Assembly: GCA_000004985.1 (NCBI GenBank)
Contig: GG738900.1
DNA from: Naegleria gruberi
Lineage: Eukaryota
Length of the DNA: 64,000 bases
Strand: one strand, 5' to 3'
Positions 3,001-45,714 of this stretch are shown in pieces. The notes under the pieces are model-generated. The model ran no database searches, was not told where the DNA came from, and saw only the letters and a program-made list of their open reading frames with translations. A program made the position numbers and the translations under genes. The stretch's first letter is position 1. Every line of letters starts with the position of its first letter.

Positions 3001-6000
3001 CCCTTCTCTCCACAAACGGAAGAGTTGGTGGATTCAACACCATAACATGTTGTTATTTCACACCATTTACCATAATAACCATCAGCACAAGAACAATTGT
3101 TTGGTGAAATACAATCTCCTCTTCCTGCACCAGAACATAAACCAACTAATCCATTACATATTGGAATTTCACAATCTGGACCACCATATCCAAGAGTTAA
3201 ATTACAAGTACAGTTATTGTAGAATTCACAAACACCACGTTTGTTACAAGCAAGAGGTGAAGTATTGTTAATACCATTACAAGTTGTGAATTGACACATT
3301 TGTCCATAATAACCAAAATCACATACACACTTGTCTCTTCCAGCACAGTTACCATGTCCACTGCATACATATGTTTCATTACCATAAACACCATAACAAA
3401 TGGAGACAGAGCAGTCATCGCCATAGGAATCTTCCTTACAAATACATTTGTTGTAGTCAATACATTGACCTTTTCCTGCACATGTGAGATTAGAGTGATG
3501 ATCAATTAAATAGCATGAGAAAATATCCAAGCATTCAGAATTTACATAAGGCTCCTTTGGATCACAAGTGATTGGAGCATCAAATGAAGCTTCTTGGAGA
3601 GTAACTTGACCCAATTCCTCAGAATGAACCCAAACTGCACCGTGTATCTTACCTGCAACCCAAAATTCTTGACCATACTTTGCAATAACAGTTCCATGAA
3701 CATGATTGACAAAGACATTTCCGTGAAGTGTTGTACTTAAGATCCAATCAGAAACGGTATTGCCAAAGTAATAAGTAGACCAGAATACATTTCTATATGA
3801 GGCACATTTTTCATATTTGAATTCTGCACCATAATAATGGATATATGGTGCTCTGAACACTACAGGTTCAGTTCCGACAATTACAAACTTGTGACCTTCA
3901 ATTAGCCAACTGTCCCTCAAACAATAGACACCCCCAAATTCAACAATGATGAGTTTTCCTAAAGAATCTGGATTATTAATGATGAAATCACATGGGAGTG
4001 TATTCAATTCATCAACTCTTTTTCCAACCTCATCAACTAGATTTTTGCCAAATTCATCATATGTGTATGTAATTCCATAACTTCCATTTCCAACATAAGG
4101 ATAGACTGGATCAGGGAATAGGAAGGTTGGAGGAGTAATAACCTGAGAAGGAATAGCAATACTTGCTGTCAAGACAGAATTAGCTAGAGAGTTTTTAGCA
4201 AGCAAAGCAGGTTTGTTACTGATCATCTTGTAGCAAGCAAAAATATCACTTTCACATTCAGCACCAGCATAACCACCACGCAAGAACAATNNNNNNNNNN
4301 NNNNNNNNNNNNNNNNNNNNNNNNNNNNNNNNNNNNNNNNNNNNNNNNNNNNNNNNNNNNNNNNNNNNNNNNNNNNNNNNNNNNNNNNNNNNNNNNNNNN
4401 NNNNNNNNNNNNNNNNNNNNNNNNNNNNNNNNNNNNNNNNNNNNNNNNNNNNNNNNNNNNNNNNNNNNNNNNNNNNNNNNNNNNNNNNNNNNNNNNNNNN
4501 NNNNNNNNNNNNNNNNNNNNNNNNNNNNNNNNNNNNNNNNNNNNNNNNNNNNNNNNNNNNNNNNNNNNNNNNNNNNNNNNNNNNNNNNNNNNNNNNNNNN
4601 NNNNNNNNNNNNNNNNNNNNNNNNNNNNNNNNNNNNNNNNNNNNNNNNNNNNNNNNNNNNNNNNNNNNNNNNNNNNNNNNNNNNNNNNNNNNNNNNNNNN
4701 NNNNNNNNNNNNNNNNNNNNNNNNNNNNNNNNNNNNNNNNNNNNNNNNNNNNNNNNNNNNNNNNNNNNNNNNNNNNNNNNNNNNNNNNNNNNNNNNNNNN
4801 NNNNNNNNNNNNNNNNNNNNNNNNNNNNNNNNNNNNNNNNNNNNNNNNNNNNNNNNNNNNNNNNNNNNNNNNNNNNNNNNNNNNNNNNNNNNNNNNNNNN
4901 NNNNNNNNNNNNNNNNNNNNNNNNNNNNNNNNNNNNNNNNNNNNNNNNNNNNNNNNNNNNNNNNNNNNNNNNNNNNNNNNNNNNNNNNNNNNNNNNNNNN
5001 NNNNNNNNNNNNNNNNNNNNNNNNNNNNNNNNNNNNNNNNNNNNNNNNNNNNNNNNNNNNNNNNNNNNNNNNNNNNNNNNNNNNNNNNNNNNNNNNNNNN
5101 NNNNNNNNNNNNNNNNNNNNNNNNNNNNNNNNNNNNNNNNNNNNNNNNNNNNNNNNNNNNNNNNNNNNNNNNNNNNNNNNNNNNNNNNNNNNNNNNNNNN
5201 NNNNNNNNNNNNNNNNNNNNNNNNNNNNNNNNNNNNNNNNNNNNNNNNNNNNNNNNNNNNNNNNNNNNNNNNNNNNNNNNNNNNNNNNNNNNNNNNNNNN
5301 NNNNNNNNNNNNNNNNNNNNNNNNNNNNNNNNNNNNNNNNNNNNNNNNNNNNNNNNNNNNNNNNNNNNNNNNNNNNNNNNNNNNNNNNNNNNNNNNNNNN
5401 NNNNNNNNNNNNNNNNNNNNNNNNNNNNNNNNNNNNNNNNNNNNNNNNNNNNNNNNNNNNNNNNNNNNNNNNNNNNNNNNNNNNNNNNNNNNNNNNNNNN
5501 NNNNNNNNNNNNNNNNNNNNNNNNNNNNNNNNNNNNNNNNNNNNNNNNNNNNNNNNNNNNNNNNNNNNNNNNNNNNNNNNNNNNNNNNNNNNNNNNNNNN
5601 NNNNNNNNNNNNNNNNNNNNNNNNNNNNNNNNNNNNNNNNNNNNNNNNNNNNNNNNNNNNNNNNNNNNNNNNNNNNNNNNNNNNNNNNNNNNNNNNNNNN
5701 NNNNNNNNNNNNNNNNNNNNNNNNNNNNNNNNNNNNNNNNNNNNNNNNNNNNNNNNNNNNNNNNNNNNNNNNNNNNNNNNNNNNNNNNNNNNNNNNNNNN
5801 NNNNNNNNNNNNNNNNNNNNNNNNNNNNNNNNNNNNNNNNNNNNNNNNNNNNNNNNNNNNNNNNNNNNNNNNNNNNNNNNNNNNNNNNNNNNNNNNNNNN
5901 NNNNNNNNNNNNNNNNNNNNNNNNNNNNNNNNNNNNNNNNNNNNNNNNNNNNNNNNNNNNNNNNNNNNNNNNNNNNNNNNNNNNNNNNNNNNNNNNNNNN

Positions 6001-9000
6001 NNNNNNNNNNNNNNNNNNNNNNNNNNNNNNNNNNNNNNNNNNNNNNNNNNNNNNNNNNNNNNNNNNNNNNNNNNNNNNNNNNNNNNNNNNNNNNNNNNNN
6101 NNNNNNNNNNNNNNNNNNNNNNNNNNNNNNNNNNNNNNNNNNNNNNNNNNNNNNNNNNNNNNNNNNNNNNNNNNNNNNNNNNNNNNNNNNNNNNNNNNNN
6201 NNNNNNNNNNNNNNNNNNNNNNNNNNNNNNNNNNNNNNNNNNNNNNNNNNNNNNNNNNNNNNNNNNNNNNNNNNNNNNNNNNNNNNNNNNNNNNNNNNNN
6301 NNNNNNNNNNNNNNNNNNNNNNNNNNNNNNNNNNNNNNNNNNNNNNNNNNNNNNNNNNNNNNNNNNNNNNNNNNNNNNNNNNNNNNNNNNNNNNNNNNNN
6401 NNNNNNNNNNNNNNNNNNNNNNNNNNNNNNNNNNNNNNNNNNNNNNNNNNNNNNNNNNNNNNNNNNNNNNNNNNNNNNNNNNNNNNNNNNNNNNNNNNNN
6501 NNNNNNNNNNNNNNNNNNNNNNNNNNNNNNNNNNNNNNNNNNNNNNNNNNNNNNNNNNNNNNNNNNNNNNNNNNNNNNNNNNNNNNNNNNNNNNNNNNNN
6601 NNNNNNNNNNNNNNNNNNNNNNNNNNNNNNNNNNNNNNNNNNNNNNNNNNNNNNNNNNNNNNNNNNNNNNNNNNNNNNNNNNNNNNNNNNNNNNNNNNNN
6701 NNNNNNNNNNNNNNNNNNNNNNNNNNNNNNNNNNNNNNNNNNNNNNNNNNNNNNNNNNNNNNNNNNNNNNNNNNNNNNNNNNNNNNNNNNNNNNNNNNNN
6801 NNNNNNNNNNNNNNNNNNNNNNNNNNNNNNNNNNNNNNNNNNNNNNNNNNNNNNNNNNNNNNNNNNNNNNNNNNNNNNNNNNNNNNNNNNNNNNNNNNNN
6901 NNNNNNNNNNNNNNNNNNNNNNNNNNNNNNNNNNNNNNNNNNNNNNNNNNNNNNNNNNNNNNNNNNNNNNNNNNNNNNNNNNNNNNNNNNNNNNNNNNNN
7001 NNNNNNNNNNNNNNNNNNNNNNNNNNNNNNNNNNNNNNNNNNNNNNNNNNNNNNNNNNNNNNNNNNNNNNNNNNNNNNNNNNNNNNNNNNNNNNNNNNNN
7101 NNNNNNNNNNNNNNNNNNNNNNNNNNNNNNNNNNNNNNNNNNNNNNNNNNNNNNNNNNNNNNNNNNNNNNNNNNNNNNNNNNNNNNNNNNNNNNNNNNNN
7201 NNNNNNNNNNNNNNNNNNNNNNNNNNNNNNNNNNNNNNNNNNNNNNNNNNNNNNNNNNNNNNNNNNNNNNNNNNNNNNNNNNNNNNNNNNNNNNNNNNNN
7301 NNNNNNNNNNNNNNNNNNNNNNNNNNNNNNNNNNNNNNNNNNNNNNNNNNNNNNNNNNNNNNNNNNNNNNNNNNNNNNNNNNNNNNNNNNNNNNNNNNNN
7401 NNNNNNNNNNNNNNNNNNNNNNNNNNNNNNNNNNNNNNNNNNNNNNNNNNNNNNNNNNNNNNNNNNNNNNNNNNNNNNNNNNNNNNNNNNNNNNNNNNNN
7501 NNNNNNNNNNNNNNNNNNNNNNNNNNNNNNNNNNNNNNNNNNNNNNNNNNNNNNNNNNNNNNNNNNNNNNNNNNNNNNNNNNNNNNNNNNNNNNNNNNNN
7601 NNNNNNNNNNNNNNNNNNNNNNNNNNNNNNNNNNNNNNNNNNNNNNNNNNNNNNNNNNNNNNNNNNNNNNNNNNNNNNNNNNNNNNNNNNNNNNNNNNNN
7701 NNNNNNNNNNNNNNNNNNNNNNNNNNNNNNNNNNNNNNNNNNNNNNNNNNNNNNNNNNNNNNNNNNNNNNNNNNNNNNNNNNNNNNNNNNNNNNNNNNNN
7801 NNNNNNNNNNNNNNNNNNNNNNNNNNNNNNNNNNNNNNNNNNNNNNNNNNNNNNNNNNNNNNNNNNNNNNNNNNNNNNNNNNNNNNNNNNNNNNNNNNNN
7901 NNNNNNNNNNNNNNNNNNNNNNNNNNNNNNNNNNNNNNNNNNNNNNNNNNNNNNNNNNNNNNNNNNNNNNNNNNNNNNNNNNNNNNNNNNNNNNNNNNNN
8001 NNNNNNNNNNNNNNNNNNNNNNNNNNNNNNNNNNNNNNNNNNNNNNNNNNNNNNNNNNNNNNNNNNNNNNNNNNNNNNNNNNNNNNNNNNNNNNNNNNNN
8101 NNNNNNNNNNNNNNNNNNNNNNNNNNNNNNNNNNNNNNNNNNNNNNNNNNNNNNNNNNNNNNNNNNNNNNNNNNNNNNNNNNNNNNNNNNNNNNNNNNNN
8201 NNNNNNNNNNNNNNNNNNNNNNNNNNNNNNNNNNNNNNNNNNNNNNNNNNNNNNNNNNNNNNNNNNNNNNNNNNNNNNNNNNNNNNNNNNNNNNNNNNNN
8301 NNNNNNNNNNNNNNNNNNNNNNNNNNNNNNNNNNNNNNNNNNNNNNNNNNNNNNNNNNNNNNNNNNNNNNNNNNNNNNNNNNNNNNNNNNNNNNNNNNNN
8401 NNNNNNNNNNNNNNNNNNNNNNNNNNNNNNNNNNNNNNNNNNNNNNNNNNNNNNNNNNNNNNNNNNNNNNNNNNNNNNNNNNNNNNNNNNNNNNNNNNNN
8501 NNNNNNNNNNNNNNNNNNNNNNNNNNNNNNNNNNNNNNNNNNNNNNNNNNNNNNNNNNNNNNNNNNNNNNNNNNNNNNNNNNNNNNNNNNNNNNNNNNNN
8601 NNNNNNNNNNNNNNNNNNNNNNNNNNNNNNNNNNNNNNNNNNNNNNNNNNNNNNNNNNNNNNNNNNNNNNNNNNNNNNNNNNNNNNNNNNNNNNNNNNNN
8701 NNNNNNNNNNNNNNNNNNNNNNNNNNNNNNNNNNNNNNNNNNNNNNNNNNNNNNNNNNNNNNNNNNNNNNNNNNNNNNNNNNNNNNNNNNNNNNNNNNNN
8801 NNNNNNNNNNNNNNNNNNNNNNNNNNNNNNNNNNNNNNNNNNNNNNNNNNNNNNNNNNNNNNNNNNNNNNNNNNNNNNNNNNNNNNNNNNNNNNNNNNNN
8901 NNNNNNNNNNNNNNNNNNNNNNNNNNNNNNNNNNNNNNNNNNNNNNNNNNNNNNNNNNNNNNNNNNNNNNNNNNNNNNNNNNNNNNNNNNNNNNNNNNNN

Positions 9001-11789
9001 NNNNNNNNNNNNNNNNNNNNNNNNNNNNNNNNNNNNNNNNNNNNNNNNNNNNNNNNNNNNNNNNNNNNNNNNNNNNNNNNNNNNNNNNNNNNNNNNNNNN
9101 NNNNNNNNNNNNNNNNNNNNNNNNNNNNNNNNNNNNNNNNNNNNNNNNNNNNNNNNNNNNNNNNNNNNNNNNNNNNNNNNNNNNNNNNNNNNNNNNNNNN
9201 NNNNNNNNNNNNNNNNNNNNNNNNNNNNNNNNNNNCACCATAATAGTTTTCGGTACAATTACAAAGATCTGGACGGTAACAAATACCACGTCTATCCTTA
9301 GTACATACGCCAGTAAGTCCATTACAGATTGGAATTTCACAGTTAAAGCCTCCATATCCAAATGTACTATTACATGTGCAGTTATTATAAAAATCACAAG
9401 AACCACGTCCACTACAGACATCTGGAGAGTTGTATTCAATATCGGCGCAAGTTGTCCATTCACACCAAGTTCCATTATAATTAGGATAACAGCTACATGT
9501 ATCCTTTGCAATACAAGCGCCATGACCATTGCTACAAACTGATGATTCAGTACCTAGAGTACCGTTACACATGGCAATAGAACAATCTTGGCCGTATTGA
9601 TCTGGTAAACACAAGCAAGTATTGTTACCTATACAGTAACCATTATTTGAGCATCCATCTTCAACAATTGATTTGGAATTGAAACAGAATGTAAGTAAAC
9701 ATTGCTCATTAATGTATGGTTCGTATCCGTTGAATGTGATTGGAGGAGTGAATGTTACATCGAATAATAGCATCTGTGTACCACCCATAAACCATAAAGC
9801 GCCCTGAATAGTATCATAAATTTCAATTTGATGGTATGGAGCCATTCCTACCACTGTACCGTGAACATTTCCAGAGAAAAAATTACCATTTCTACCATAG
9901 TCCCAAGTCAACCAAAAGACATTTCTATAGGAGGCACATAACAGATAGTAAAAAACGGCATTATAATAATTGACGTATGGAGCCTTAAAAACAACAGGCT
10001 CAAGACCATGGATAATAAAAATATGATCCTTAATTGTGATACCATTAGGGAAACAATACACACCACCATGCTTGATAACAGTAATATTCTGTAATTCATC
10101 TTGACTATTAATGGTATGTGTACAATCCATGTACAATAATTCCATGGATTTCTTTTCCATTTCTTGAATAATCAACTCTGTCATCGGATCATTTTGAGGT
10201 TTTGAAATGACAACATCATTTCCACTTGGTTCGTACATGACTGGAGTTGTTGGTGAGTAGGCATGAGAAACCTGAATGTCAGGTAAGGCGAAACTTGCCT
10301 GTAATTCCTTTTTAGAGTTTCTGGCAATCATAATAGGTTTGGAACTGATAAGTTTGTAGCCAGCAAATATATCTACAGCACAAGCCTCACCAATGAAACC
10401 AGTTTGGCAAGTACAATTGTTGTATGAAATACAAGTACCGTGTCCAGAACAAACTAAAGGAGAATTAGAATCATCACTGAAACATTGTGTCAATTCACAA
10501 TTAGAGCCAAAATAATTATCTACACAAGAGCAAGAGTCAGGAGCAGTACAGTTACCTAGTGAGGTACAAACAGAAGCATTAGAGAAATGCACACCAGAAC
10601 AATTCCAATGTTGGCACTTATCACCATAATATCCATACAGACAATTACAGTTATCAGAACCAATACAGTCACCGTTACCAGAGCAAACAGTTGAATCGTT
10701 TGATCCTATACCATAACACCAATGAACGGTGAAAATCTCTTCATCACAATTGTTACCAGAGTATCCATCAGTGCACAAGCATTTGTCTAAGGCTGTGCAA
10801 TTTCCTTGGCCATTACATACCAGTGAGGAGTTTGACAATACACCAAAGCATTGAGTAACTTGGCAATCATTTCCAAAATAATTGGAACTACATTGACAAT
10901 TATTTAAATCTACACAAGCGCCATTACCAGAGCAAACAGTTGAATCGTTTGATCCTATACCATAACACCAATGAACGGTGAAAATCTCTTCATCACAATT
11001 GTTACCAGAGTATCCATCAGTGCACGAGCATTTATCTAAGGCTGTGCAATTTCCTTGGCCATTACATACCAGTGAGGAGTTTGACAATACACCAAAGCAT
11101 TGGGTAACTTGGCAATCATTTCCAAAATAATTGGAACTACATTGGCAATTATTTAAATCTACACAAGCGCCATTACCAGAGCAAACAGTTGAATCGTTTG
11201 ATCCTATACCATAACACCAATGAACGGTGAAAATCTCTTCATCACAATTGTTACCAGAGTATCCATCAGTGCACAAGCATTTGTCTAAGGCTGTGCAATT
11301 TCCTTGGCTACTACATACCAGTGAGGAGTTTGACAATACACCAAAGCATTGAGTAACTTGGCAATCATCTCCAAAATAATTGGAACTACATTGACAATTA
11401 TTTAAATCTACACAAGCGCCATTACCAGAGCAAACTCTAGAGTCATTACTTAGAAGTTCATTACATTCAAAAACAGAACATAAAGGACCATAATAACCAC
11501 TATCACACAAACAATTATCTGGTGATTGGCAACCATGTCCTGACAATATTAACGGATTGATTTGTGGATATTCCAAGCATTCTATATATTCACAATTGTT
11601 GCCTGAATATCCTGTAAGGCAACTACAAGTCTCATCAGCTATACAAGTTCCGTTACCTGAGCAAACCAATAGATCGGTTGAATCCAACGAATTACAGGTA
11701 AAGGCTTGTACACACTTAGTTGAAAAAACTACTAAGAGCGTTACTAACACAACACACTTAATAAATAATGAGGTGTTGATTCCGCTCAT
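1..11789 (-). CDS. Giant secreted EGF-like (tenascin-type) repeat protein. ATG at 11789 with a signal peptide; the 3' end continues off the window. The ORF is interrupted by the assembly gap. Architecture is SP - EGF modules - module X - EGF modules - [gap] - module X - at least 35 EGF modules.
   Basis: Minus-strand translation from 11789 gives MSGINTSLFIKCVVLVTLLVVFSTKCVQA, then CxSGxGxCxxxxxCxCxxGYYGxxCE repeats of ~32 aa. The same frame is continuous from 4289 down to 1 (translated by hand, no stops). The frame at 11789 and at 4289 is identical (7500 nt apart). The ORF track lacks it because the frame never terminates inside the window. Confidence 0.8.
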   Translation of the reverse strand, partial: MSGINTSLFIKCVVLVTLLVVFSTKCVQAFTCNSLDSTDLLVCSGNGTCIADETCSCLTGYSGNNCEYIECLEYPQINPLILSGHGCQSPDNCLCDSGYYGPLCSVFECNELLSNDSRVCSGNGACVDLNNCQCSSNYFGDDCQVTQCFGVLSNSSLVCSSQGNCTALDKCLCTDGYSGNNCDEEIFTVHWCYGIGSNDSTVCSGNGACVDLNNCQCSSNYFGNDCQVTQCFGVLSNSSLVCNGQGNCTALDKCSCTDGYSGNNCDEEIFTVHWCYGIGSNDSTVCSGNGACVDLNNCQCSSNYFGNDCQVTQCFGVLSNSSLVCNGQGNCTALDKCLCTDGYSGNNCDEEIFTVHWCYGIGSNDSTVCSGNGDCIGSDNCNCLYGYYGDKCQHWNCSGVHFSNASVCTSLGNCTAPDSCSCVDNYFGSNCELTQCFSDDSNSPLVCSGHGTCISYNNCTCQTGFIGEACAVDIFAGYKLISSKPIMIARNSKKELQASFALPDIQVSHAYSPTTPVMYEPSGNDVVISKPQNDPMTELIIQEMEKKSMELLYMDCTHTINSQDELQNITVIKHGGVYCFPNGITIKDHIFIIHGLEPVVFKAPYVNYYNAVFYYLLCASYRNVFWLTWDYGRNGNFFSGNVHGTVVGMAPYHQIEIYDTIQGALWFMGGTQMLLFDVTFTPPITFNGYEPYINEQCLLTFCFNSKSIVEDGCSNNGYCIGNNTCLCLPDQYGQDCSIAMCNGTLGTESSVCSNGHGACIAKDTCSCYPNYNGTWCEWTTCADIEYNSPDVCSGRGSCDFYNNCTCNSTFGYGGFNCEIPICNGLTGVCTKDRRGICYRPDLCNCTENYYGXXXXXXXXXXXXXXXXXXXXXXXXXXXXXXXXXXXXXXXXXXXXXXXXXXXXXXXXXXXXXXXXXXXXXXXXXXXXXXXXXXXXXXXXXXXXXXXXXXXXXXXXXXXXXXXXXXXXXXXXXXXXXXXXXXXXXXXXXXXXXXXXXXXXXXXXXXXXXXXXXXXXXXXXXXXXXXXXXXXXXXXXXXXXXXXXXXXXXXXXXXXXXXXXXXXXXXXXXXXXXXXXXXXXXXXXXXXXXXXXXXXXXXXXXXXXXXXXXXXXXXXXXXXXXXXXXXXXXXXXXXXXXXXXXXXXXXXXXXXXXXXXXXXXXXXXXXXXXXXXXXXXXXXXXXXXXXXXXXXXXXXXXXXXXXXXXXXXXXXXXXXXXXXXXXXXXXXXXXXXXXXXXXXXXXXXXXXXXXXXXXXXXXXXXXXXXXXXXXXXXXXXXXXXXXXXXXXXXXXXXXXXXXXXXXXXXXXXXXXXXXXXXXXXXXXXXXXXXXXXXXXXXXXXXXXXXXXXXXXXXXXXXXXXXXXXXXXXXXXXXXXXXXXXXXXXXXXXXXXXXXXXXXXXXXXXXXXXXXXXXXXXXXXXXXXXXXXXXXXXXXXXXXXXXXXXXXXXXXXXXXXXXXXXXXXXXXXXXXXXXXXXXXXXXXXXXXXXXXXXXXXXXXXXXXXXXXXXXXXXXXXXXXXXXXXXXXXXXXXXXXXXXXXXXXXXXXXXXXXXXXXXXXXXXXXXXXXXXXXXXXXXXXXXXXXXXXXXXXXXXXXXXXXXXXXXXXXXXXXXXXXXXXXXXXXXXXXXXXXXXXXXXXXXXXXXXXXXXXXXXXXXXXXXXXXXXXXXXXXXXXXXXXXXXXXXXXXXXXXXXXXXXXXXXXXXXXXXXXXXXXXXXXXXXXXXXXXXXXXXXXXXXXXXXXXXXXXXXXXXXXXXXXXXXXXXXXXXXXXXXXXXXXXXXXXXXXXXXXXXXXXXXXXXXXXXXXXXXXXXXXXXXXXXXXXXXXXXXXXXXXXXXXXXXXXXXXXXXXXXXXXXXXXXXXXXXXXXXXXXXXXXXXXXXXXXXXXXXXXXXXXXXXXXXXXXXXXXXXXXXXXXXXXXXXXXXXXXXXXXXXXXXXXXXXXXXXXXXXXXXXXXXXXXXXXXXXXXXXXXXXXXXXXXXXXXXXXXXXXXXXXXXXXXXXXXXXXXXXXXXXXXXXXXXXXXXXXXXXXXXXXXXXXXXXXXXXXXXXXXXXXXXXXXXXXXXXXXXXXXXXXXXXXXXXXXXXXXXXXXXXXXXXXXXXXXXXXXXXXXXXXXXXXXXXXXXXXXXXXXXXXXXXXXXXXXXXXXXXXXXXXXXXXXXXXXXXXXXXXXXXXXXXXXXXXXXXXXXXXXXXXXXXXXXXXXXXXXXXXXXXXXXXXXXXXXXXXXXXXXXXXXXXXXXXXXXXXXXXXXXXXXXXXXXXXXXXXXXXXXXXXXXXXXXXXXXXXXXXXXXXXXXXXXXXXXXXXXXXXXXXXXXXXXXXXXXXXXXXXXXXXXXXXXXXXXXXXXXXXXXXXXXXXXXXXXXXXXXXXXXXXXXXXXXXXXXXXXXXXXXXXXXXXXXXXXXXXXXXXXXXXXXXXXXXXXXXXXXXXXXXXXXXXXXXXXXXXXXXXXXXXXXXXXXXXXXXXXXXXXXXXXXXXXXXXXXXXXXXXXXXXXXXXXXLFLRGGYAGAECESDIFACYKMISNKPALLAKNSLANSVLTASIAIPSQVITPPTFLFPDPVYPYVGNGSYGITYTYDEFGKNLVDEVGKRVDELNTLPCDFIINNPDSLGKLIIVEFGGVYCLRDSWLIEGHKFVIVGTEPVVFRAPYIHYYGAEFKYEKCASYRNVFWSTYYFGNTVSDWILSTTLHGNVFVNHVHGTVIAKYGQEFWVAGKIHGAVWVHSEELGQVTLQEASFDAPITCDPKEPYVNSECLDIFSCYLIDHHSNLTCAGKGQCIDYNKCICKEDSYGDDCSVSICYGVYGNETYVCSGHGNCAGRDKCVCDFGYYGQMCQFTTCNGINNTSPLACNKRGVCEFYNNCTCNLTLGYGGPDCEIPICNGLVGLCSGAGRGDCISPNNCSCADGYYGKWCEITTCYGVESTNSSVCGEKGNCTAFDKCSCLEGYYGHTCQDFECFGISRLSNETCSGKGSCVNYDTCVCQPEFYGINCEVTSCNDIYSNETKSCSGHGKCVGLDTCNCTQNYYGPWCELTTCFGIEATNHSTVCSGRGSCSRFDVCSCLDGYYGPRCEFTSCDSISSNSTEVCNGVGTCIDLDICVCPNTYSGDFCEITSCFGVPTNIPSVCSGRGFCTHLDICNCDETLGYEGSNCEIPICNGIPAVNSTVCSSHGSCTGADHCSCDTGYFGSNCENTTCGGVSSTSHQVCSRHGFCATYNNCTCNLGYSGSICSVFSCRGTMNTEKAVCSGRGNCSDIDTCVCLSDAYGDDCSISKCNGTFSNFTNIVCSSRGHCIGTDSCNCTEGYYGKFCERTSCYGVDMANKSVCSGRGLCSDYNQCNCSEGYYGDNCQYHTCFGLNNTESKVCSGHGLCSRTDECKCASNYFGLNCSVTICNAVLSNETMVCSGRGECLSPNQCSCREGYYGDYCQVTNCYSIASNQSQLVCSGRGQCSDMNTCICDPDAYGPDCSLYKCNGALSNESIVCSGRGQCIETDHCNCTENNYGQFCQVTSCFGIPSNQTDLTCSGKGVCAQFNSCQCFENSFGSDCSEFKCFEILNVNLTACHSRGSCMSTNNCSCFLNYLGDECELTSCNSILSNDTNVCSGKGQCADFDSCACDEGYYGDNCEYFNCNGIEHLNSSVCSSRGHCTSYEKCECDEGYFGNNCQFFTCNSVNHTESTVCSSRGECSSYNNCTCRDNYFGNDCELTTCGSIQSNDSKVCSSKGSCMDYNICNCSAGYYGSECENFNCFGVSKFSNSTCSGRGDCIDGNTCVCMANMFGPMCEVTICDGILSNDSSVCSGHGSCVDVNDCDCDTNYYGSTCEVTTCNGVSSNTSSVCSGFGKCASFDRCQCEEHYNGNDCQYFTCNGVNHTETTVCSSRGECSSFNNCSCRDNYFGDTCELTTCGSIQSNNSKVCTSRGNCSDFNTCNCSSINYFGT
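3505..4240 (-). repeat. Non-EGF conserved module X, copy 1 (~235 aa), embedded between EGF runs
   Basis: Translation gives DIFACYKMISNKPALLAKNS...GGVYCLRDSWLIEGHKFVIVGTEPVVFRAPYIHYYGAEFKYEKCASYRNVFW...HGTVIA.... This is alignable to copy 2 through shared motifs DIFAxYKxISxKP, GGVYC, EPVVFxAPY, CASYRNVFW and HGTV. Confidence 0.7.
4291..9235. other. Assembly gap (4,945 N)
   Basis: An uninterrupted N run. ORFs 4223..9529 and 4258..9258 in the track are artefacts of translating N as X. Confidence 0.99.
9700..10385 (-). repeat. Non-EGF conserved module X, copy 2
   Basis: Translation gives DIFAGYKLISSKPIMIARNS...HGGVYCFPNGITIKDHIFIIHGLEPVVFKAPYVNYYNAVFYYLLCASYRNVFW...HGTVVG.... It is a diverged paralogue of copy 1 (roughly 40-45% identity by eye). 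Confidence 0.7.
10670..11440 (-). repeat. Near-identical tandem triplication of a 249-bp (83-aa, EGF-module) unit inside the giant gene
   Basis: The string 'agcaaacagttgaatcgtttgatcctataccataacaccaatgaacggtgaaaatctcttcatcacaattgttaccagagtatccatcagtgcac...' recurs at 10682, 10931 and 11180. The period is exactly 249 nt with only a few substitutions. A partial fourth copy starts at 11429. Confidence 0.9.
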
Positions 11790-36430: not shown

Positions 36431-37702
36431 TCAGTACCTGTCATAGGACCTTCGCTGATAAACAATTTCACCTGTTTTCTTGGTATATTTTATGGCATCA
36501 ATGTACGAAGAGGATGGTGCAATAATGTACAAGTACTTTAAATTATTTAAAACTTCACTTTCAGCAATTGCCTGTCTTCCTTCATATCCAAACAAATTAC
36601 AAGATACATCCAGATAGGTCAGATTTGTCATATTTTGACTTTTGGCAAGTGAATTGATACCTCGAAATCCTAAACAATTTACAGATAGGTCAAGAAATGT
36701 CAAATTTTTCACATAAGAGGAAGAACTCAACTCTATTAGGTCCTCTTCCTTCACTCCTGAAGAACTCAAATTCAAATAGGTCAAATTCTTCATTGAAGAG
36801 CTATTGGATATTGCTTTCAAAATTCTGGTTAGCATTGTTTTGTTGTTGGCAAAGTTCAAACTTGTTAATTTGGCCAAACATGCAACGAATTTTGCAACAT
36901 CACTGGAGAGATTAACATCAGTTGGATTAGTGCAATACATCCACTTTAAGGTGAGGTGAGTAAGATTTGTAAATCTGCTTAGTAATTTCAAAACTGGACC
37001 AGAAAATTCACTTCCAGAAAGATTTAACTTTCTCAAACTGTGATTCAAGGTTTCATTGGCTGCTATTAATTCAACATGCTGCAAACTAAAGCTATTCATT
37101 GATAAATCCAAACATGTCAATTGTGATTTACATTCCGATATTTGTTGAATGATGGAAGGTGAATGTAAATTGTTGCATCTCAAATGTAATTCCTTTAATT
37201 TTGTAAAATATTCCAACTCTAACATTTCAATATCATTGTCATTTAAGTTCAACACTCTAATCTTTTTTTCATGACCTTTCAGAAAAGATGTTGATCTAAT
37301 ATTTTGTGATTCCAAGTGCCATTCTTCCACATTCTCAAAAGCTCCACAGTTAAATAATGCAGCAACACCTTCAGAATTTAATCTCTCTTGGGAAGGTAGC
37401 TCCTGTCCATATAATTTTACAATTTTCAAATTTTCAAAAGGTTTTGTAATTTTTTGTAAAGCTACTCCAACTCTATTTGATGTATAACCACACACCAATG
37501 AATGTGATGATGATAAACATGTATTAAACCATCGTCTGCATTCCATCCACCGATCGATCATTAATCTGGAGCTAAACTTTAACTGTCTCACCTCTATGCA
37601 TTCATGCCAACATCTACAGACCGCTGTAAAGTGAATAATTTCATACTGATCACAAAATTCCATGATCAGATTGATGAGCTCTGCTGGGAGATGTTGTGCC
37701 AT
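36431..37702 (-). CDS. F-box / leucine-rich-repeat (RNI-like) protein, 423 aa
   Basis: N-terminus LPAELINLIMEFCD (F-box) followed by LxxLxLxxN LRRs (LNLSGS, LTYLNLSSSGV, LTFLDLSVNCLG). Confidence 0.7.
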   Translation of the reverse strand: MAQHLPAELINLIMEFCDQYEIIHFTAVCRCWHECIEVRQLKFSSRLMIDRWMECRRWFNTCLSSSHSLVCGYTSNRVGVALQKITKPFENLKIVKLYGQELPSQERLNSEGVAALFNCGAFENVEEWHLESQNIRSTSFLKGHEKKIRVLNLNDNDIEMLELEYFTKLKELHLRCNNLHSPSIIQQISECKSQLTCLDLSMNSFSLQHVELIAANETLNHSLRKLNLSGSEFSGPVLKLLSRFTNLTHLTLKWMYCTNPTDVNLSSDVAKFVACLAKLTSLNFANNKTMLTRILKAISNSSSMKNLTYLNLSSSGVKEEDLIELSSSSYVKNLTFLDLSVNCLGFRGINSLAKSQNMTNLTYLDVSCNLFGYEGRQAIAESEVLNNLKYLYIIAPSSSYIDAIKYTKKTGEIVYQRRSYDRY

Positions 37703-37761
37703 TTTTTTTTGTCTTCAAATTGAAGTGCAAGTTCCGAGTTTCATTTGTTTATTTTTCAACT

Positions 37762-39441
37762 TTACAATAGCAAACATGTGTTGGATTTGTTTGTTGGGGT
37801 ATTAGATTTTGTCAATATTTTGTCAATTTCTTTTGAACTGGAACTGGAATCTGAAACAACAAGCTTTACAATCTTGTAATCTCTATTTTCAAATTTGAGA
37901 AATTTCTGCACAGCAAGTTTTGTAAAATTATTGCCAGTAATGGAAAGTTGAATTTCTGTTGTGAATTTTGATTTATACTTTGCAGCAGTTGAGATAAATT
38001 CTGAAATTGCATAATCACCAATTTCACAATTATTTGCCAGTAATTCTGTTAATTGTTTCAACAATGGAAAATGAGAAAATCCATCACCAATTGGATTGTC
38101 TGAAATATGCAAAATTTTCACATGTGAAGAAAGTTGGCAAAACTCAATGACCGCTTGGGCATTGATATGATTCGCACAAATAGAGAGCCGATCCAAGGAT
38201 TCACAAGCAGAGAGGTATTTCAACCCGTTTCTAATATTATTACCATTCAAATTGAGAATTCTTAATTTACGTAAAGTTCCATAATTTTTCAAACCTTCCT
38301 CTCCAATTAAATTATACGAAAGAATTAACTGTTCAATATTGATATTAGATGATAGATAATTAGCACCAATATTGCCAATATTGTTACCATTCAAATCCAA
38401 GTATGTTAGATTGATGAGCTTGTTGAAATCCATTAAGAAACTATCACCAATTGAATTATTCGAAAGATTCAAGTATTTCAAAGTTGTAATTGAGCTCAAA
38501 TAACATCCACCATCGAAAATATCATTATCACTCAAAATTAAACTTGTCAGATTTTTCAAATTCCCCAGCCGATCCAACTCTCCTTTTATATTATTATGTC
38601 TAACAGACAAATATTCCAATTTTGGTAAATGTACATCAATTTCCTCAATTGAGCGACCATGTACACCATGTAATGTTAATCTCTTCAATGCACCAATTTT
38701 GAAGAGTTCCTTCAATCCCTGTTCAATCTCCACAGCACCACATTCCAATTCAATCAAAGATTCCAAATTTCCAAATAATTCCAAAACTGAATTTTCAATT
38801 TTTGTTTTTGAAGGGACAAGTCTTAAACTCTTCAAAGTTTTAGAAAATTTGCTATTCAATATTGAAATCCATGAATCAAAACTGAGGCCACCAATTACCA
38901 ATCTTTCCAATGGCCAATCAACATTAAAATTCAATTCACCTCGATAATCTCTAAAGGAAATGGTGAATGATTTGATTTTTGATTGACAGCATTTCATAAA
39001 TTCAACCACCTGAGTATATTCTAAACATTGTAGGTCAACAATTTCTAAAGTTTTCATATTAGAAAAGTAACTAATCAAAGATTTTTCAGAAAAATCTGCT
39101 AATATCAATTCTTTCAAGTTGGTCAATCTAGAAATAAATTGACTTTCTATTTCTAAATAATTAGGAGAAAGCTTTCTCTTGATTACATGTGGAATGTAGA
39201 ATAAACTCGTTATTTTATCTAGCTCTTCGGAATGATCATTTAATATTAATTCTAAACCTTTCGAATCTCCTGTATATTTGATCGGAAAGTGAAATGTTTT
39301 AATTGACTTGTAATTTAAATTCCAATATTTGCAAACTAATCTTGCCGTGTTCAATACCCATTTATATTCGAAATATGGAAGAATTTGATGAAAAATAACT
39401 TCGTTGGGAAGATGTGAAAGGCAAATAGTTTGGTCCTGCAT
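37762..39441 (-). CDS. F-box-like / leucine-rich-repeat protein, 559 aa
   Basis: N-terminus LPNEVIFHQILPYF followed by RNI-type LRRs (LNLSNNSIGD, LDLNGNNIGNIG, LNLNGNNIRNG, LHISDNPIGDG). Confidence 0.7.
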   Translation of the reverse strand: MQDQTICLSHLPNEVIFHQILPYFEYKWVLNTARLVCKYWNLNYKSIKTFHFPIKYTGDSKGLELILNDHSEELDKITSLFYIPHVIKRKLSPNYLEIESQFISRLTNLKELILADFSEKSLISYFSNMKTLEIVDLQCLEYTQVVEFMKCCQSKIKSFTISFRDYRGELNFNVDWPLERLVIGGLSFDSWISILNSKFSKTLKSLRLVPSKTKIENSVLELFGNLESLIELECGAVEIEQGLKELFKIGALKRLTLHGVHGRSIEEIDVHLPKLEYLSVRHNNIKGELDRLGNLKNLTSLILSDNDIFDGGCYLSSITTLKYLNLSNNSIGDSFLMDFNKLINLTYLDLNGNNIGNIGANYLSSNINIEQLILSYNLIGEEGLKNYGTLRKLRILNLNGNNIRNGLKYLSACESLDRLSICANHINAQAVIEFCQLSSHVKILHISDNPIGDGFSHFPLLKQLTELLANNCEIGDYAISEFISTAAKYKSKFTTEIQLSITGNNFTKLAVQKFLKFENRDYKIVKLVVSDSSSSSKEIDKILTKSNTPTNKSNTCLLL

Positions 39442-39621: not shown

Positions 39622-39740
39622 GGCTACGGCCATATCACGATTCATGCACCTCATCCCGTCCGATTTGAGAAGTTAAGTATCGTCGAGCCACATCAGTACT
39701 GAGGTTGGAGACAACTTGGGAACCTGTGGTGCTGTAGTCT
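39622..39740 (+). rRNA. 5S ribosomal RNA gene (dispersed copy)
   Basis: GGCTACGGCCATATCACG…CATCCCGTCCGATTTGAGAAGTTAAGT…CAGTACTGAGGTTGGAGACAACTTGGGAACCTGTGGTGCTGTAGTC matches the universal 5S helices and loop C/E. It is very close to Dictyostelium 5S as recalled from memory. A T-run follows. Confidence 0.9.
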
Positions 39741-39744
39741 TTTT
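39740..39744 (+). terminator. Pol III terminator T-run after the 5S gene
   Basis: TTTTT immediately follows the 3' end of the 5S gene. Confidence 0.5.
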
Positions 39745-40000
39745 ATTTCACTTACCCAATGGAGGATTGTTATACAACCTCTTTATGGAGTCCCCTAGAG
39801 GATGCAATATTACTATTAACTCAATTTTTTGTAGGGTCCAGAGTTGTGCTTAATTGCACACTTTTGTTAGTTTCAATCTGACATTGCACTGTCCGTCAGA
39901 AATGGAGCTATCCCACTTCATTGAAAAGTGAAAAATTACAAGAGTCTCTTATTATTTCAATCCAGTAAGATTATTGTGAAATAATTGAATGAAAATGAAA

Positions 40001-40074
40001 GCAGCGATAGATCAGTTGGTTAGATCGTAAGCCTAACACGCTTAAGGTCGCGGGTTCAAGCCCCGCTCGCTGTA
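40001..40074 (+). tRNA. tRNA-Val (anticodon AAC)
   Basis: Cloverleaf folded by hand: acceptor GCAGCGA/TCGCTGT (G1-U72), D-arm GATC…GATC, anticodon stem TAAGC/GCTTA with loop CTAACAC, T-arm GCGGG-TTCAAGC-CCCGC, discriminator A. It is followed by TTTT at 40078. Confidence 0.9.
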
Positions 40075-40324
40075 ACCTTTTATATTCTTTAAGAAGCATA
40101 TGATTTTAAGGAAAAAAAATTACAAGATGTACATCACGTTCCATCCAATTCAACATTTCATCGCGTTGTTTGAGATGGATTGAATTTTTTAAACTAATTA
40201 AAATCTAAAATTAGGAACAATTAAAAAATAGGTCAACTTTCTTCAAAGAATTATTACATCAATAGAAACAAAAGAAACCGATTTCAATTTTGTTCGATTT
40301 TTATCAACTTTTAACCGATAAAAG

Positions 40325-42157
40325 ATGTTCCGAGCACACGATGAAGAAGAAACACCATCACCATCATTATCAAATATTATTATTGTTACCGATCAACAAC
40401 AACAACAAACAAGGCTCTATCCTAACTTGAATTTGGAATCAACTGTGAATGCTATGGCTACTAATAACTTGGGTGCCAGTGTATTGTTGATTCGTGATGA
40501 GGGATTTCATCCAGTAATTATGGAAGACAATGATGAAGAAGAGGAAGAAGAAGAATTGACACTTGGTCAACAATCATCTCCGAAACTTGTTGATCAACAA
40601 GCAATTCATACTACTGGTTTTCAATCACCTATTGTGGAAAGAATACAAGGTTTTAGTACTGGAACTCCTACTAGTAATCAGAATCTGGATGGATTGAATG
40701 AGGTTGTGCTCACACCTCGATCATCAGCTCATGGTTATTCATCGAATAGATCCAGTCGATCCAATAGTAATGTCTCAACAAATAAGAGAATAGTTAGCAC
40801 TGGATACTATTATGGTTCATCACCTAATGAAGATGCATTGTCTGGATTGACTACTCCTCGTTGGAATTTGAATGGGGAGGATGATATTGATATTGAATAT
40901 GCAACAGGTGGCGGTGGCAGTAGCTCATTTGAATATAATAACCAGAATCACCACCTATTTAATAATGAATATAATGAACATAGAGATCATGATTTTGAAG
41001 AATTTGAACTTGGAGTTGCTGCTTGTAGAGAAGAGATCACCTCTTGGCAAAGGTTCATAGAGTTGAGAGTGTTACTTGCTGAGGTCCCAATACTCAACAG
41101 GGTTATTTCATTTGTATATTATCCAAACTTGTTAAATACCACTAATGATATGAAAACTAACGATATTGCTAACATGCTAAAATCAATTTTGAGATTGAGA
41201 CTTGTAAATAAGAAATGGAAACAATCAATTGATAATCCAACAGGAGTTCTCTATCACTATTTGTTAGAGTATTCATCGATTCAAAAATCTATTTCTCTGA
41301 AAAATCTCAAACTGGCTCATTCAGAATTTAACTTTTTCTCAATTCCTGGCATATACATGGTTGGTATTGGTAAAATTATTGGACAGACCTCGTTGATCCC
41401 TCTCGAAATGGGAACCAGAGCCTACACCAAGATGGAACAAGATTATGGCAGTGCAACTGCTAACACTATTTTGGCCCTTGGCGCTGGAATTACAATTGCA
41501 TCAGGTAGTTTTGCTCTGTTCATGCTTTCTGGCGCCTTTTACCTGATGCCTATTGCAGCAGGAGGTTATGTCCTCGACAAGGCAATAGAATTTGGTCTGG
41601 ATTATTCCAATAAGAAAAGTGCAGAGAAGGAAATTATTCAAACTGTAGAAGAGAAGGAGAAGGCACTTGATTCTTTCAGAATGAAAATGAGGAAAATAAC
41701 CCAATTTGAAAATATGGTTATTGAGAAGTATGAAGGTATTCAAGCGCAAGGTAATGATGCCTCCTGGACTGGTTATATTTTTTCTTTTGCCTCAATGGAA
41801 AACAAGCACTCTGTCTATTATTTGATTGATATTACCATGAAGATTGAAGAATCTACATATACCTACACACTCAAGAAGAGATATTCCCAATTTGAAAAGC
41901 TTTTCCAGAGAATGTGTGCTGTTAGAAAGACTGATAAGATTGTGGGTAAAAATGGTGAAGTTTTAATATTTCCATACAAGGAAATAATTGATTCACTGTT
42001 AGGAACTAGAAGTAAGGACATTATTGAGAAAAGAAAAGAATTGTTTAATAAGATTCTTTTTGAACTTGTAAATAATTTGGACGAATATAAGGATGATGAA
42101 GAGATTATGGTCTTTTTCACTGACTCTGAACAATACAATAGTAGTAGCAGTAAATAA
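40325..42157 (+). CDS. PX-domain protein with internal hydrophobic/Gly-zipper segment, 610 aa
   Basis: C-terminal region YTLKKRYSQFEKLFQRM…FPYKEIIDSLLG…IEKRKELFNKILFEL matches the PX consensus (R[RY]S[DE]F…P…R…LExYL). The N-terminus is low-complexity Q/N/S/E. Confidence 0.6.
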   Translation: MFRAHDEEETPSPSLSNIIIVTDQQQQQTRLYPNLNLESTVNAMATNNLGASVLLIRDEGFHPVIMEDNDEEEEEEELTLGQQSSPKLVDQQAIHTTGFQSPIVERIQGFSTGTPTSNQNLDGLNEVVLTPRSSAHGYSSNRSSRSNSNVSTNKRIVSTGYYYGSSPNEDALSGLTTPRWNLNGEDDIDIEYATGGGGSSSFEYNNQNHHLFNNEYNEHRDHDFEEFELGVAACREEITSWQRFIELRVLLAEVPILNRVISFVYYPNLLNTTNDMKTNDIANMLKSILRLRLVNKKWKQSIDNPTGVLYHYLLEYSSIQKSISLKNLKLAHSEFNFFSIPGIYMVGIGKIIGQTSLIPLEMGTRAYTKMEQDYGSATANTILALGAGITIASGSFALFMLSGAFYLMPIAAGGYVLDKAIEFGLDYSNKKSAEKEIIQTVEEKEKALDSFRMKMRKITQFENMVIEKYEGIQAQGNDASWTGYIFSFASMENKHSVYYLIDITMKIEESTYTYTLKKRYSQFEKLFQRMCAVRKTDKIVGKNGEVLIFPYKEIIDSLLGTRSKDIIEKRKELFNKILFELVNNLDEYKDDEEIMVFFTDSEQYNSSSSK

Positions 42158-43869: not shown

Positions 43870-45327
43870 TTAATTCTTATTGTTGTGATTAATTAATGGA
43901 TACTTTTCCTTCTCTTCCTCATCTTGTTGATTATCCAAATTATTAGTATTATTGCTGGTGATACCTTCATTGTCATTGTAAACAATATCATCACTCTGAT
44001 GATAAATAATTGGTTCAATAACTTCTGAAGAATCATTAATTGAAACATTCGAATGGGGTTCGCCTCCTTTCGTTTGATTCTTCTCCTCACTAACCTCATG
44101 TCTCAAGTGATTCCAGGGTAAAAACTTGGGATCCATCTCATAAAGTGGCTTTCGAGCGAATACTTCATATCCAATATTTCCCAATGTAATAATAATCAAT
44201 GAAACAATAATCCACCAAGTTGGTTGACTAGAAAATTGTCCAACTAATGGTTTAATCCAAAAGCAAACAGCAGTCAATGGATACAACAAGGCATTCAAAT
44301 TGGCCAAAACATTGGATCCAAACTTTTCAATCAGATAAGATCCACTCACGAAATAAACATAGTATCCAGCCACGAATATACATGTCCACAATGTGGCTTG
44401 CCAACCACCACAACATGAAGACACATCATAATTCCCAAAAAAGCATTGGAATGCTTCTCCCTGTTGCTCAAATACCTGAGTGGCAGAACATGTGGTTGCA
44501 TTCATGGAACACATGGAGAGTGGAGTGTGAGCTGGAACATTACATGAGCCAAAGTTTGGAACCATGGTCATGAACATCCATGCAGCATAGACAATCAATG
44601 AGAATAGATTGTAATAGACCAAGACGATGAAGGTAGGTGCCTTGTAGGAATCATAGGCCACCTCTTGATAGATAGTTTCAAAAGCTGTTGGAATGGCAGA
44701 ACAAATGGAAATGATGAGCCAGAAGGCAGAGTTTGAGAAGGTGGTTTCTGAGCCAGTTCCATTCATATAGGAGTAGATGGAACCAAAGAGGAGTCCGGAG
44801 AGAATGAGCAGGAAACAGCCAATTTGACCCAAATCATATTTCTTTCTCAAAATCAATGGATACATGATCCATGTGAGAGGAGCAGAAACTTGAGTCAAAA
44901 TGGCAGTCAATTCTGGATCAACAAATGGAATGGCACTCTGTGCGAAAATTCCATTGAAAGCAGTAAAGAAACCAAGTGCCAAAACACAAATGATCAACTT
45001 CTTGTTATAGTACAAACACCATCTTTCCTTGATTTGCTTGAATGAATGTTTCTGAACAACAATGGAAAGGAAAATTTCAGTTACAATAAAGAAGGAGGTG
45101 TACATGAAGGTAGTTCCATACAATAAGAAACCAGAATTGTACAATGGCATGTAGTAGCCCATAATTTGCACTCCCAAATTATTCATCATTCCTCCCATCA
45201 AGTAAATGATGACCAAAACGATGAATAAGAGATTTCTCTTTGAGAACATGGAGTTTGCCATTTGGGAGAGTCGTTGTCTAAGACCTCGACCAGTTGCTGA
45301 ATTGTTGTTGAAAAGTTTGATTTGCAT
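43870..45327 (-). CDS. Multi-pass membrane protein, putative transporter (possibly CRT-like/DMT superfamily), ~485 aa; probable ATG at 45327 (the track ORF starts from an upstream GTG at 45573)
   Basis: About 10 predicted hydrophobic helices, a Cys-rich loop (CSMNATTCSATQ…CFFGNYDVSSCCGGW) and an acidic N/D-rich tail. The family assignment is tentative. Confidence 0.45.
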   Translation of the reverse strand: MQIKLFNNNSATGRGLRQRLSQMANSMFSKRNLLFIVLVIIYLMGGMMNNLGVQIMGYYMPLYNSGFLLYGTTFMYTSFFIVTEIFLSIVVQKHSFKQIKERWCLYYNKKLIICVLALGFFTAFNGIFAQSAIPFVDPELTAILTQVSAPLTWIMYPLILRKKYDLGQIGCFLLILSGLLFGSIYSYMNGTGSETTFSNSAFWLIISICSAIPTAFETIYQEVAYDSYKAPTFIVLVYYNLFSLIVYAAWMFMTMVPNFGSCNVPAHTPLSMCSMNATTCSATQVFEQQGEAFQCFFGNYDVSSCCGGWQATLWTCIFVAGYYVYFVSGSYLIEKFGSNVLANLNALLYPLTAVCFWIKPLVGQFSSQPTWWIIVSLIIITLGNIGYEVFARKPLYEMDPKFLPWNHLRHEVSEEKNQTKGGEPHSNVSINDSSEVIEPIIYHQSDDIVYNDNEGITSNNTNNLDNQQDEEEKEKYPLINHNNKN

Positions 45328-45714
45328 GTTGAGTGAATATGAGCTTGTTGTTGCTATTAAGTAAAAATCTTGTGTTGATATGATAAAGAAAAATGGTTGT
45401 GATCTCTGGGATGACAGATAATAATGTGTGCTTGTGTTTGAGAATAATATAATTGAGAATACTGCTAACTTGAACAAATTCTTGAGTGAGATTAAGACTG
45501 TAGAGTTGTAAAGTGTGTGTGAAGGGCCTTTAATAGAAAATATCCAGACGCAAGAAAGTGAATATTGAAACACAACTAATAATTAACTAGTTTTTTTCTT
45601 TTAATTCAAGTGTTAATGCTGCTGCTGTTGTGCAATGATAAATATAGAAAACTTGAGAAAATCTTTCAAGAAACTTGCCTGATGATTTGCTGCACAGAAT
45701 GTTTGTGTCATCTC

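Follow-up and report, generated by a model that had tools for sequence, protein, structure and literature searches.

A solitary chromosomal 5S rRNA gene, a tRNA-Val gene and a U2-like fragment in one intergenic region of Naegleria gruberi

The DNA considered here is a stretch of 64,000 nucleotides from contig GG738900.1 of Naegleria gruberi (assembly GCA_000004985.1; this whole stretch is referred to below as the window), in which a gene for 5S ribosomal RNA (rRNA) is followed, on the same strand and after a spacer of 260 bp, by a gene for a valine transfer RNA (tRNA-Val). Both genes lie in an intergenic region of 883 bp between two genes of RNA polymerase II (Pol II). A preliminary description of this DNA drew attention to the pair as a small cluster of RNA polymerase III (Pol III) genes, and suggested that it may indicate an altered organization of 5S genes or a captured copy. 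The question that this locus raises is whether the cluster has a meaning of its own or is an ordinary piece of its genome. The evidence summarized below indicates that it is very probably ordinary N. gruberi nuclear DNA, in which a 5S gene belonging to a dispersed family happens, by chance, to occupy the same intergenic region as one tRNA gene.

The identities of the two genes are clear. RNA genes were called by Rfam cmscan over the whole window, and the tRNA type was assigned by ARAGORN. Only two matches reached the curated thresholds in these 64 kb, namely one 5S_rRNA and one tRNA, and their scores and coordinates, with those of all other features, are collected in Table 1. The 5S_rRNA match spans model positions 1-120 of 120 and is full length, and the minimum-free-energy structure given by RNAfold is the canonical Y with its three-way junction (-38.2 kcal/mol). 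The run of four T residues behind the gene abuts its terminal T, so that five T residues are found when the last 5S base is counted. Comparison with the textbook consensus locates the internal promoter boxes of the tRNA-Val gene, with TAGATCAGTTGG as the A box and GGTTCAAGCCC as the B box. The preliminary description, which reported a full-length and apparently intact 5S gene, a tRNA-Val(AAC) gene 260 bp downstream in the same orientation, a T-run after each gene and a position between an F-box gene and a PX gene, was correct on these points, and all of its coordinates are accurate; the upstream neighbour is a leucine-rich repeat (LRR) open reading frame (ORF) with a weak F-box-like match, and the downstream one is a PX-domain ORF.

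The interest first attached to the pair came from Dictyostelium, and this is where the argument needs correction. In Dictyostelium discoideum the 5S gene sits on the extrachromosomal palindrome of ribosomal DNA (rDNA), and it was reasoned that a chromosomal 5S gene in a dictyostelid genome might be either a captured copy or the product of a lineage-specific reorganization. Some features of the window do superficially resemble the genomes of social amoebae, since it is AT-rich (GC content about 33%) and contains F-box/LRR and PX genes. However, the ORF at 40325-42154 matches XP_002672102.1 (EFC39358.1) of N. gruberi NEG-M exactly and from end to end, and two more, the CRT-like transporter ORF (43870-45573, minus strand) and the LRR ORF, align to predicted N. 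gruberi proteins with 100% identity throughout the aligned parts. The next-best protein matches after those of N. gruberi come from environmental sequences and from Acrasis kona, which, like Naegleria, belongs to the Heterolobosea, whereas no dictyostelid match was obtained in any protein search of the window ORFs. A dictyostelid origin therefore has practically no probability, and the case for notability built on Dictyostelium concerned the wrong organism; the 5S/tRNA locus is one of Naegleria gruberi.

The two organisms resemble each other in keeping their large rRNA genes outside the chromosomes and in many copies. They differ in the position of the 5S gene, which is chromosomal in Naegleria: here the 18S, 5.8S, and 28S genes have been located solely on a circular extrachromosomal element of about 14 kb, and the rRNAs listed for this circle in N. 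gruberi are 18S, 5.8S, and 28S, without 5S (PMC5805870). Because the rDNA element of Naegleria carries no 5S gene, the idea of a copy captured from it has no basis.

A chromosomal and solitary 5S gene is, moreover, an arrangement already published for this lineage and is ordinary in it. In 2012, a total of 279 putative 5S genes were described in the N. gruberi genome, located away from the rDNA units (PMC3369914). The same paper reports an internal control region, a TATA box, and T-run terminators for these genes, and states that TFIIIB and TFIIIC are present and that no recognizable TFIIIA is found (PMC3369914). Its summary table (Table 1 of that paper) scores the N. gruberi 5S genes as "tandem: yes." However, our re-analysis of the coordinates of the 279 entries in its Table S1 shows that they are spread over 117 scaffolds, and that the gaps between 5S genes on the same scaffold (n = 162) have a median of 33.9 kb, with 1 of the 162 below 1 kb and 32 below 5 kb. 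The family is thus dispersed with some loose clustering, and the "tandem" label is not supported by the paper's own coordinates. The window agrees with this picture. It contains one 5S gene, in accordance with a median spacing of about 34 kb, and no tandem array is present, as a single 5S match was found in the 64 kb even at E<=1; neither were 18S, 5.8S, or 28S genes found in the window by the Rfam search. The gene described here therefore has the properties of a member of the dispersed family, being nuclear, solitary at a distance of tens of kilobases, unlinked to the rDNA unit, followed by a T-run, and 119 nt long, compared with 117-120 nt in the published table. It differs in its upstream region, as will be discussed below.

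It remains to consider the nearness of the tRNA gene. The N. gruberi genome is reportedly about 41 Mb in size according to its genome paper. It contains 924 tRNA genes (PMC2888827), and the number of 5S genes expected to have a tRNA gene within 400 bp on either side can be estimated as 279 x 924 x 800 bp / 41 Mb. This gives about 5 chance adjacencies under uniform placement, and about 13 if both kinds of gene are confined to non-coding DNA, for which a share of about 40% is assumed. Taken for a single 5S gene, the chance amounts to about 2-5%. The linkage of 5S and tRNA-Val is within this genome-wide chance expectation, and a single instance picked by eye is unremarkable. A second approach was to look at other 5S loci, for which metagenome contigs were scanned. 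Thirteen contigs were obtained (L001-L013), of which L005, from a JGI metagenome, is the only Naegleria-like one; the hydrolase encoded next to its 5S gene shares 86% identity with N. gruberi XP_002676052.1. No tRNA gene is present in the 538 bp downstream of the L005 5S gene, nor elsewhere on this contig of 1964 bp, and on this one other locus, tight tRNA linkage is not the rule for Naegleria 5S genes. The remaining 12 contigs (L001-L004 and L006-L013) each carry a single 5S gene, and no tRNA gene was found on them. The preliminary description had conceded that the arrangement would be merely standard if 5S genes of this lineage were normally dispersed next to tRNA genes; the dispersal holds, with 279 copies on 117 scaffolds, but adjacency to a tRNA gene is not general, judging from L005.

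Linkage of 5S genes to other small-RNA genes (those for tRNA, small nuclear RNA (snRNA), and spliced-leader RNA) occurs in protists and animals, and the present locus is similar in that a tRNA gene and an snRNA-derived sequence (see below) are found within a few hundred base pairs on one strand. A linkage of U3, U5, and tRNA genes has reportedly been described in Euglena. In the classical cases, however, the linked genes are repeated together as a tandem unit, whereas the present locus stands alone, with each gene in one copy, a truncated snRNA fragment, and a frequency at the level of chance.

On this reading, the 5S gene would function as an independent Pol III unit with an internal control region (type 1 promoter), and the tRNA-Val gene as another, with a type 2 promoter formed by its internal A and B boxes; transcription of each presumably ends at the T-run behind it. 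The extrachromosomal circle would supply the 18S, 5.8S, and 28S rRNAs, and the chromosomal copies would be the normal and only source of 5S rRNA, because the circle carries no 5S gene. The spacer would also contain a decayed, 5'-truncated, and inert copy of U2 snRNA.

Several observations weigh against this interpretation. For any given 5S gene, the probability of having a tRNA gene this near is about 1-5%, so that finding the only 5S gene and the only tRNA gene of the window 260 bp apart is an event of about that frequency per 5S gene, which leaves a non-random association some probability. In addition, transcription of this particular copy is something we infer from established Pol III biology, and the copy carries four clustered differences from L005, the closest Naegleria 5S sequence compared (21 G>T, 22 A>C, 24 A>T, and 57 C>T, from L005 to the window copy). 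The pair 21-57 is thereby changed from G-C in L005 to U·U in the window copy, and C57T abolishes a match to the box A consensus (NSYYAANC; PMC3369914) that L005 keeps at position 50. Furthermore, no TATAAA is present in the 60 bp upstream of the window 5S gene, although a TATA box is reported for the family (PMC3369914).

The four differences and the lack of an upstream TATAAA would also suit the view that this 5S copy is an inactive, decaying variant, that is, a pseudogene that has kept its fold and lost promoter or protein-binding determinants; the decrease in Rfam score from 106.3 bits for L005 to 98.6 bits points in the same direction. However, 115 of the 119 positions are identical to those of a copy from a different Naegleria species. 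The U21·U57 pair, which is the last pair of helix II at its loop B end, is the sole non-standard pair in the cmscan alignment, and every other helix is intact. Therefore, when helix-breaking substitutions are taken as the mark of a pseudogene, as had been proposed beforehand, one terminal pair of helix II qualifies and no other helix does. A long-dead copy should show scattered changes, whereas the four seen here are clustered, three of them in loop B positions 21-24 (UCAU in the window copy and GAAA in L005). As to the promoter, box C has 2 mismatches to the published consensus in both the window copy and L005, which suggests that this consensus is a loose guide for Naegleria; the box strings of PMC3369914 are vertebrate-derived and may not apply to Naegleria, since N. 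gruberi yielded no TFIIIA, and the pattern for the intermediate element is too loose to inform. The four differences could be typical of the strain or the species. Overall, we consider it rather unlikely that the copy is a pseudogene, and retain the view that a structurally intact member of the dispersed family is present.

The spacer between the two genes contains the sequence mentioned above. A permissive Rfam search detected a match to U2 snRNA (RF00004) of 27.2 bits, which lies below the gathering score of 46 and is the top sub-threshold match in the window. Its E-value depends on the size of the search, being 0.00082 in 311 nt and 0.0066 in 2.5 kb, and rising to 0.17 when all 4227 families are searched over the whole window. 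The match corresponds to the 3' domain of U2 and has its elements in the proper order, namely an Sm site, contained in UAUUAACUCAAUUUUUUG, then stem-loop III, and then stem-loop IV with an AUUGCA-type loop; the AUUGCAC loop of stem-loop IV is the hallmark loop bound by U2B''/U1A. A stem-loop IIb-like hairpin precedes the Sm site, 36 nt after the 5S gene. A composite pattern of an Sm site, 50-80 nt, and CATTGCAC, chosen post hoc, has a single occurrence in the window, and none of 100 shuffles contains it. A scan for bacterial-type promoters and terminators, which are irrelevant in a eukaryote, only found the stem-loop III hairpin again. By contrast with this 3' domain, the 5' end of U2, with stem-loop I and the branch-point-binding GUAGUA, is missing, the UCAAGUGUAGUAUCUGUUCU model positions being deleted in the alignment, and no GTAGTA is present in 39741-39830. 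Judging from these sequence features, the element is probably a 5'-truncated U2 pseudogene. Because the half that binds the branch point is missing, it cannot act as U2.

It was also considered whether the 5S gene had been inserted into a U2 gene and had split it, since the upstream sequence CCTTTTTT...GGCCCTGATCATTGTAAGATTCC resembled the U2 5' end by eye. The alignment is no better than background: when the first 70 nt of human U2 were aligned locally with the 185 nt preceding the 5S gene, the score was 21, compared with a background maximum of 28 elsewhere in the window, and this candidate was rejected.

The same spacer might instead be a working, hitherto undescribed gene for an snRNA of the Sm class, with a U2-like 3' domain and a U1-like 5' end. 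Its Sm site, its two well-formed 3' hairpins, one of them with the U1A/U2B''-type loop, and its folding, which over 39741-39925 is better than that of shuffles (z = -2.45), would suit such a gene, as would the ACUUACC at 39750-39756, near the presumed 5' end, which resembles the part of U1 that binds the 5' splice site. However, this 7-mer match is weak and post hoc, and the Rfam models for U1, U11, U12, and other snRNAs gave no match at E<10. The Sm site precedes the AUUGCAC hairpin, which is the order in U2 and not that in U1; with no U1 model match and this order, identification of the element as U1 itself was rejected as well. Furthermore, GUAGUA and stem-loop I, the functional core of U2, are absent, and the element begins about 10-36 nt past the 5S terminator, leaving no space for an upstream snRNA promoter. 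A functional snRNA gene is thus very improbable, and an inert U2 remnant remains the preferred reading of the spacer.

The truncated U2 copy leads to a further possibility, in which the cluster is not due to chance. The 5S gene and the U2 piece could both have been retroposed to a site about 50 bp upstream of the tRNA gene, and insertion of this kind could be the route by which Naegleria 5S genes have spread. Targeting of retrotransposons to Pol III genes is known for TRE5-A of Dictyostelium and Ty3 of yeast, and the proposed insertion in Naegleria would resemble their integration. The similarity between the window 5S gene and that of L005 begins at +1 and stops at the T-run, with unrelated flanks on either side. 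Because the similarity of these non-orthologous copies is confined to this interval, the repeated unit is the transcribed region alone, as would be expected for a retroposed transcript. As for the U2 piece, its 5' half is missing, an A-rich stretch (CTTCATTGAAAAGTGAAAAATTACAAGAG) comes after it, and a direct repeat with 12 of 13 positions matching (TCTTTTTATTTCA and TCTTATTATTTCA) encloses it, all of which recalls the 5'-truncated snRNA retropseudogenes generated by long interspersed nuclear elements; without the 209-bp segment, about 50 bp would separate the 5S terminator from the tRNA gene downstream. If this were true, the 5S gene, the truncated U2, and the tRNA-Val gene within 883 bp would record repeated RNA-mediated insertions into a zone some 50 bp in front of a tRNA gene, and retroposed 5S copies would remain active, as the 5S promoter is internal.

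However, the U2 piece does not end in a clean poly(A) tail, unlike the retropseudogenes just mentioned, and the putative target-site duplication is not significant, as a 13-mer repeat with at most one mismatch within 400 nt is seen in 41% of shuffles. A second, exact 13-bp repeat (AAAAATTACAAGA) brackets the tRNA-Val gene; when the 1.1-kb region was shuffled 200 times by dinucleotides, 2% of the shuffles contained an exact repeat of at least 13 nt, which is borderline. Because the two repeat pairs interleave, they cannot both be simple target-site duplications. In addition, the 5S gene of L005 lacks a tRNA gene in its 538 bp downstream, the adjacencies expected by chance already cover one case, and no reverse-transcriptase element was seen nearby, though none was sought. 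Retroposition of the 5S gene and the U2 piece toward the tRNA gene is thus quite unlikely, and it is slightly less likely still that targeted retroposition of 5S transcripts to Pol III genes disperses the roughly 279 Naegleria 5S genes. A single locus does not settle how this family spreads; a genome-wide view of Naegleria 5S flanks could show how such a family does so.

Chance proximity therefore remains the favoured explanation, and the locus is of little significance in itself, since a solitary chromosomal 5S gene is what the published description of the N. gruberi genome predicts. What is new is small and at the level of annotation, consisting of the U2 fragment and the four-position 5S variant. 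For annotators, the U2-derived fragment and the lack of support for the "tandem" label in the paper's coordinates may be of minor use.

Table 1. Features in and around the intergenic region that holds the 5S rRNA and tRNA-Val genes, in window coordinates.
Feature	Position	Strand	Evidence or remark
F-box ORF, next beyond the LRR ORF	36431-37702	-	F-box 22.3 bits, cut-off 20.5
LRR-repeat ORF, upstream neighbour	37762-39441	-	weak N-terminal F-box-like match, 19.9 bits, cut-off 24.3
5S rRNA gene, 119 nt	39622-39740	+	RF00001, 98.6 bits vs gathering score 38, E=2.8e-20
12/13 direct repeat TCTT(T/A)TTATTTCA, copy TCTTTTTATTTCA	39738-39750	+	brackets U2-like piece
TTTT, presumed Pol III terminator of 5S gene	39741-39744	+	sequence reading
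U2 snRNA-like fragment, 3' domain only	39777-39915 (possibly 39746-39946)	+	RF00004, sub-threshold
Stem-loop IIb-like hairpin, CCTCT/AGAGG	39778-39782 / 39797-39801	+	RF00004 alignment
Sm-site-like AATTTTTTG (RNA AAUUUUUUG)	39823-39831	+	aligned to U2 consensus AUUUUUgg, high posterior probability
Stem-loop III of U2-like fragment	39845-39860	+	RF00004 alignment, high posterior probability
Stem-loop IV of U2-like fragment, 6-bp stem	39877-39882 / 39895-39900	+	loop begins ATTGCAC, 39883-39889
13-bp direct repeat AAAAATTACAAGA, copy 1	39931-39943	+	exact; repeat search
12/13 direct repeat TCTT(T/A)TTATTTCA, copy TCTTATTATTTCA	39947-39959	+	brackets U2-like piece
tRNA-Val(AAC) gene	40001-40074	+	RF00005, 66.9 bits vs 29; ARAGORN Val, anticodon AAC
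TTTT, presumed Pol III terminator of tRNA-Val	40078-40081	+	3 nt past discriminator base
13-bp direct repeat AAAAATTACAAGA, copy 2	40115-40127	+	exact; L016 has it with 1-nt insertion
PX-domain ORF, downstream neighbour	40325-42157	+	PX 24.1 bits, cut-off 21.6; NCBI name "PX-domain-containing protein"

Some further observations concern the sequences used for comparison. The 12 contigs that are not Naegleria-like (mostly VFQM01.../VFQO01...) have the 26-nt helix III/loop C sequence in common with Naegleria and otherwise differ in their 5S sequences. Eleven of them come from one eukaryote, and L013 (LLBY01...) is more divergent. In most of the 12, a pyrimidine-rich (T)TTC directly precedes the 5S +1, and the flanks are unrelated. 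TTT or TTTT directly follows the 5S gene in L001-L012 where the 3' flank is available, which is not the case in L013. A Naegleria-specific 24-mer had zero matches in scans of genome contigs and viral contigs. At the locus of a CRT-like homologue with 53% identity (L014/L015), synteny with the window is absent, and neither a 5S nor a tRNA gene is found there.

The protein search detected no F-box/LRR orthologue outside NEG-M, and for the PX protein it detected only one contig outside NEG-M, from an environmental strain (L016; ENA metagenome ERZ929261, k127_497168), whose PX protein is 99% identical. The tRNA-Val gene occupies the corresponding position before the PX gene in L016; the contig begins 5 nt before the tRNA and is uninformative on the 5S gene and the U2 piece. 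Alignment of L016 positions 1-75 with window positions 39996-40090 shows a 4-bp deletion in which one CGCT of CGCTCGCT is gone. Part of the T-stem and of the acceptor stem is lost with it, and ARAGORN makes no tRNA call there; either genuine inactivation or an error in assembly could account for the missing CGCT. An indel of 11 bp is also present just 3' of tRNA-Val in L016.

Finally, two features of the wider window may be mentioned. There is an assembly gap (a run of N) at about 4300-9400, where the GC content is 0.000 at 6001-8000 and strongly lowered in the neighbouring 2-kb bins. The two adjoining F-box/LRR genes at 36431-39441 form a tandem pair on the minus strand, and the annotated N. 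gruberi protein for the second of them, with 431 aa, covers only 77% of the ORF (559 aa), so that the F-box-like part at the N-terminus may be missing from the public gene model.

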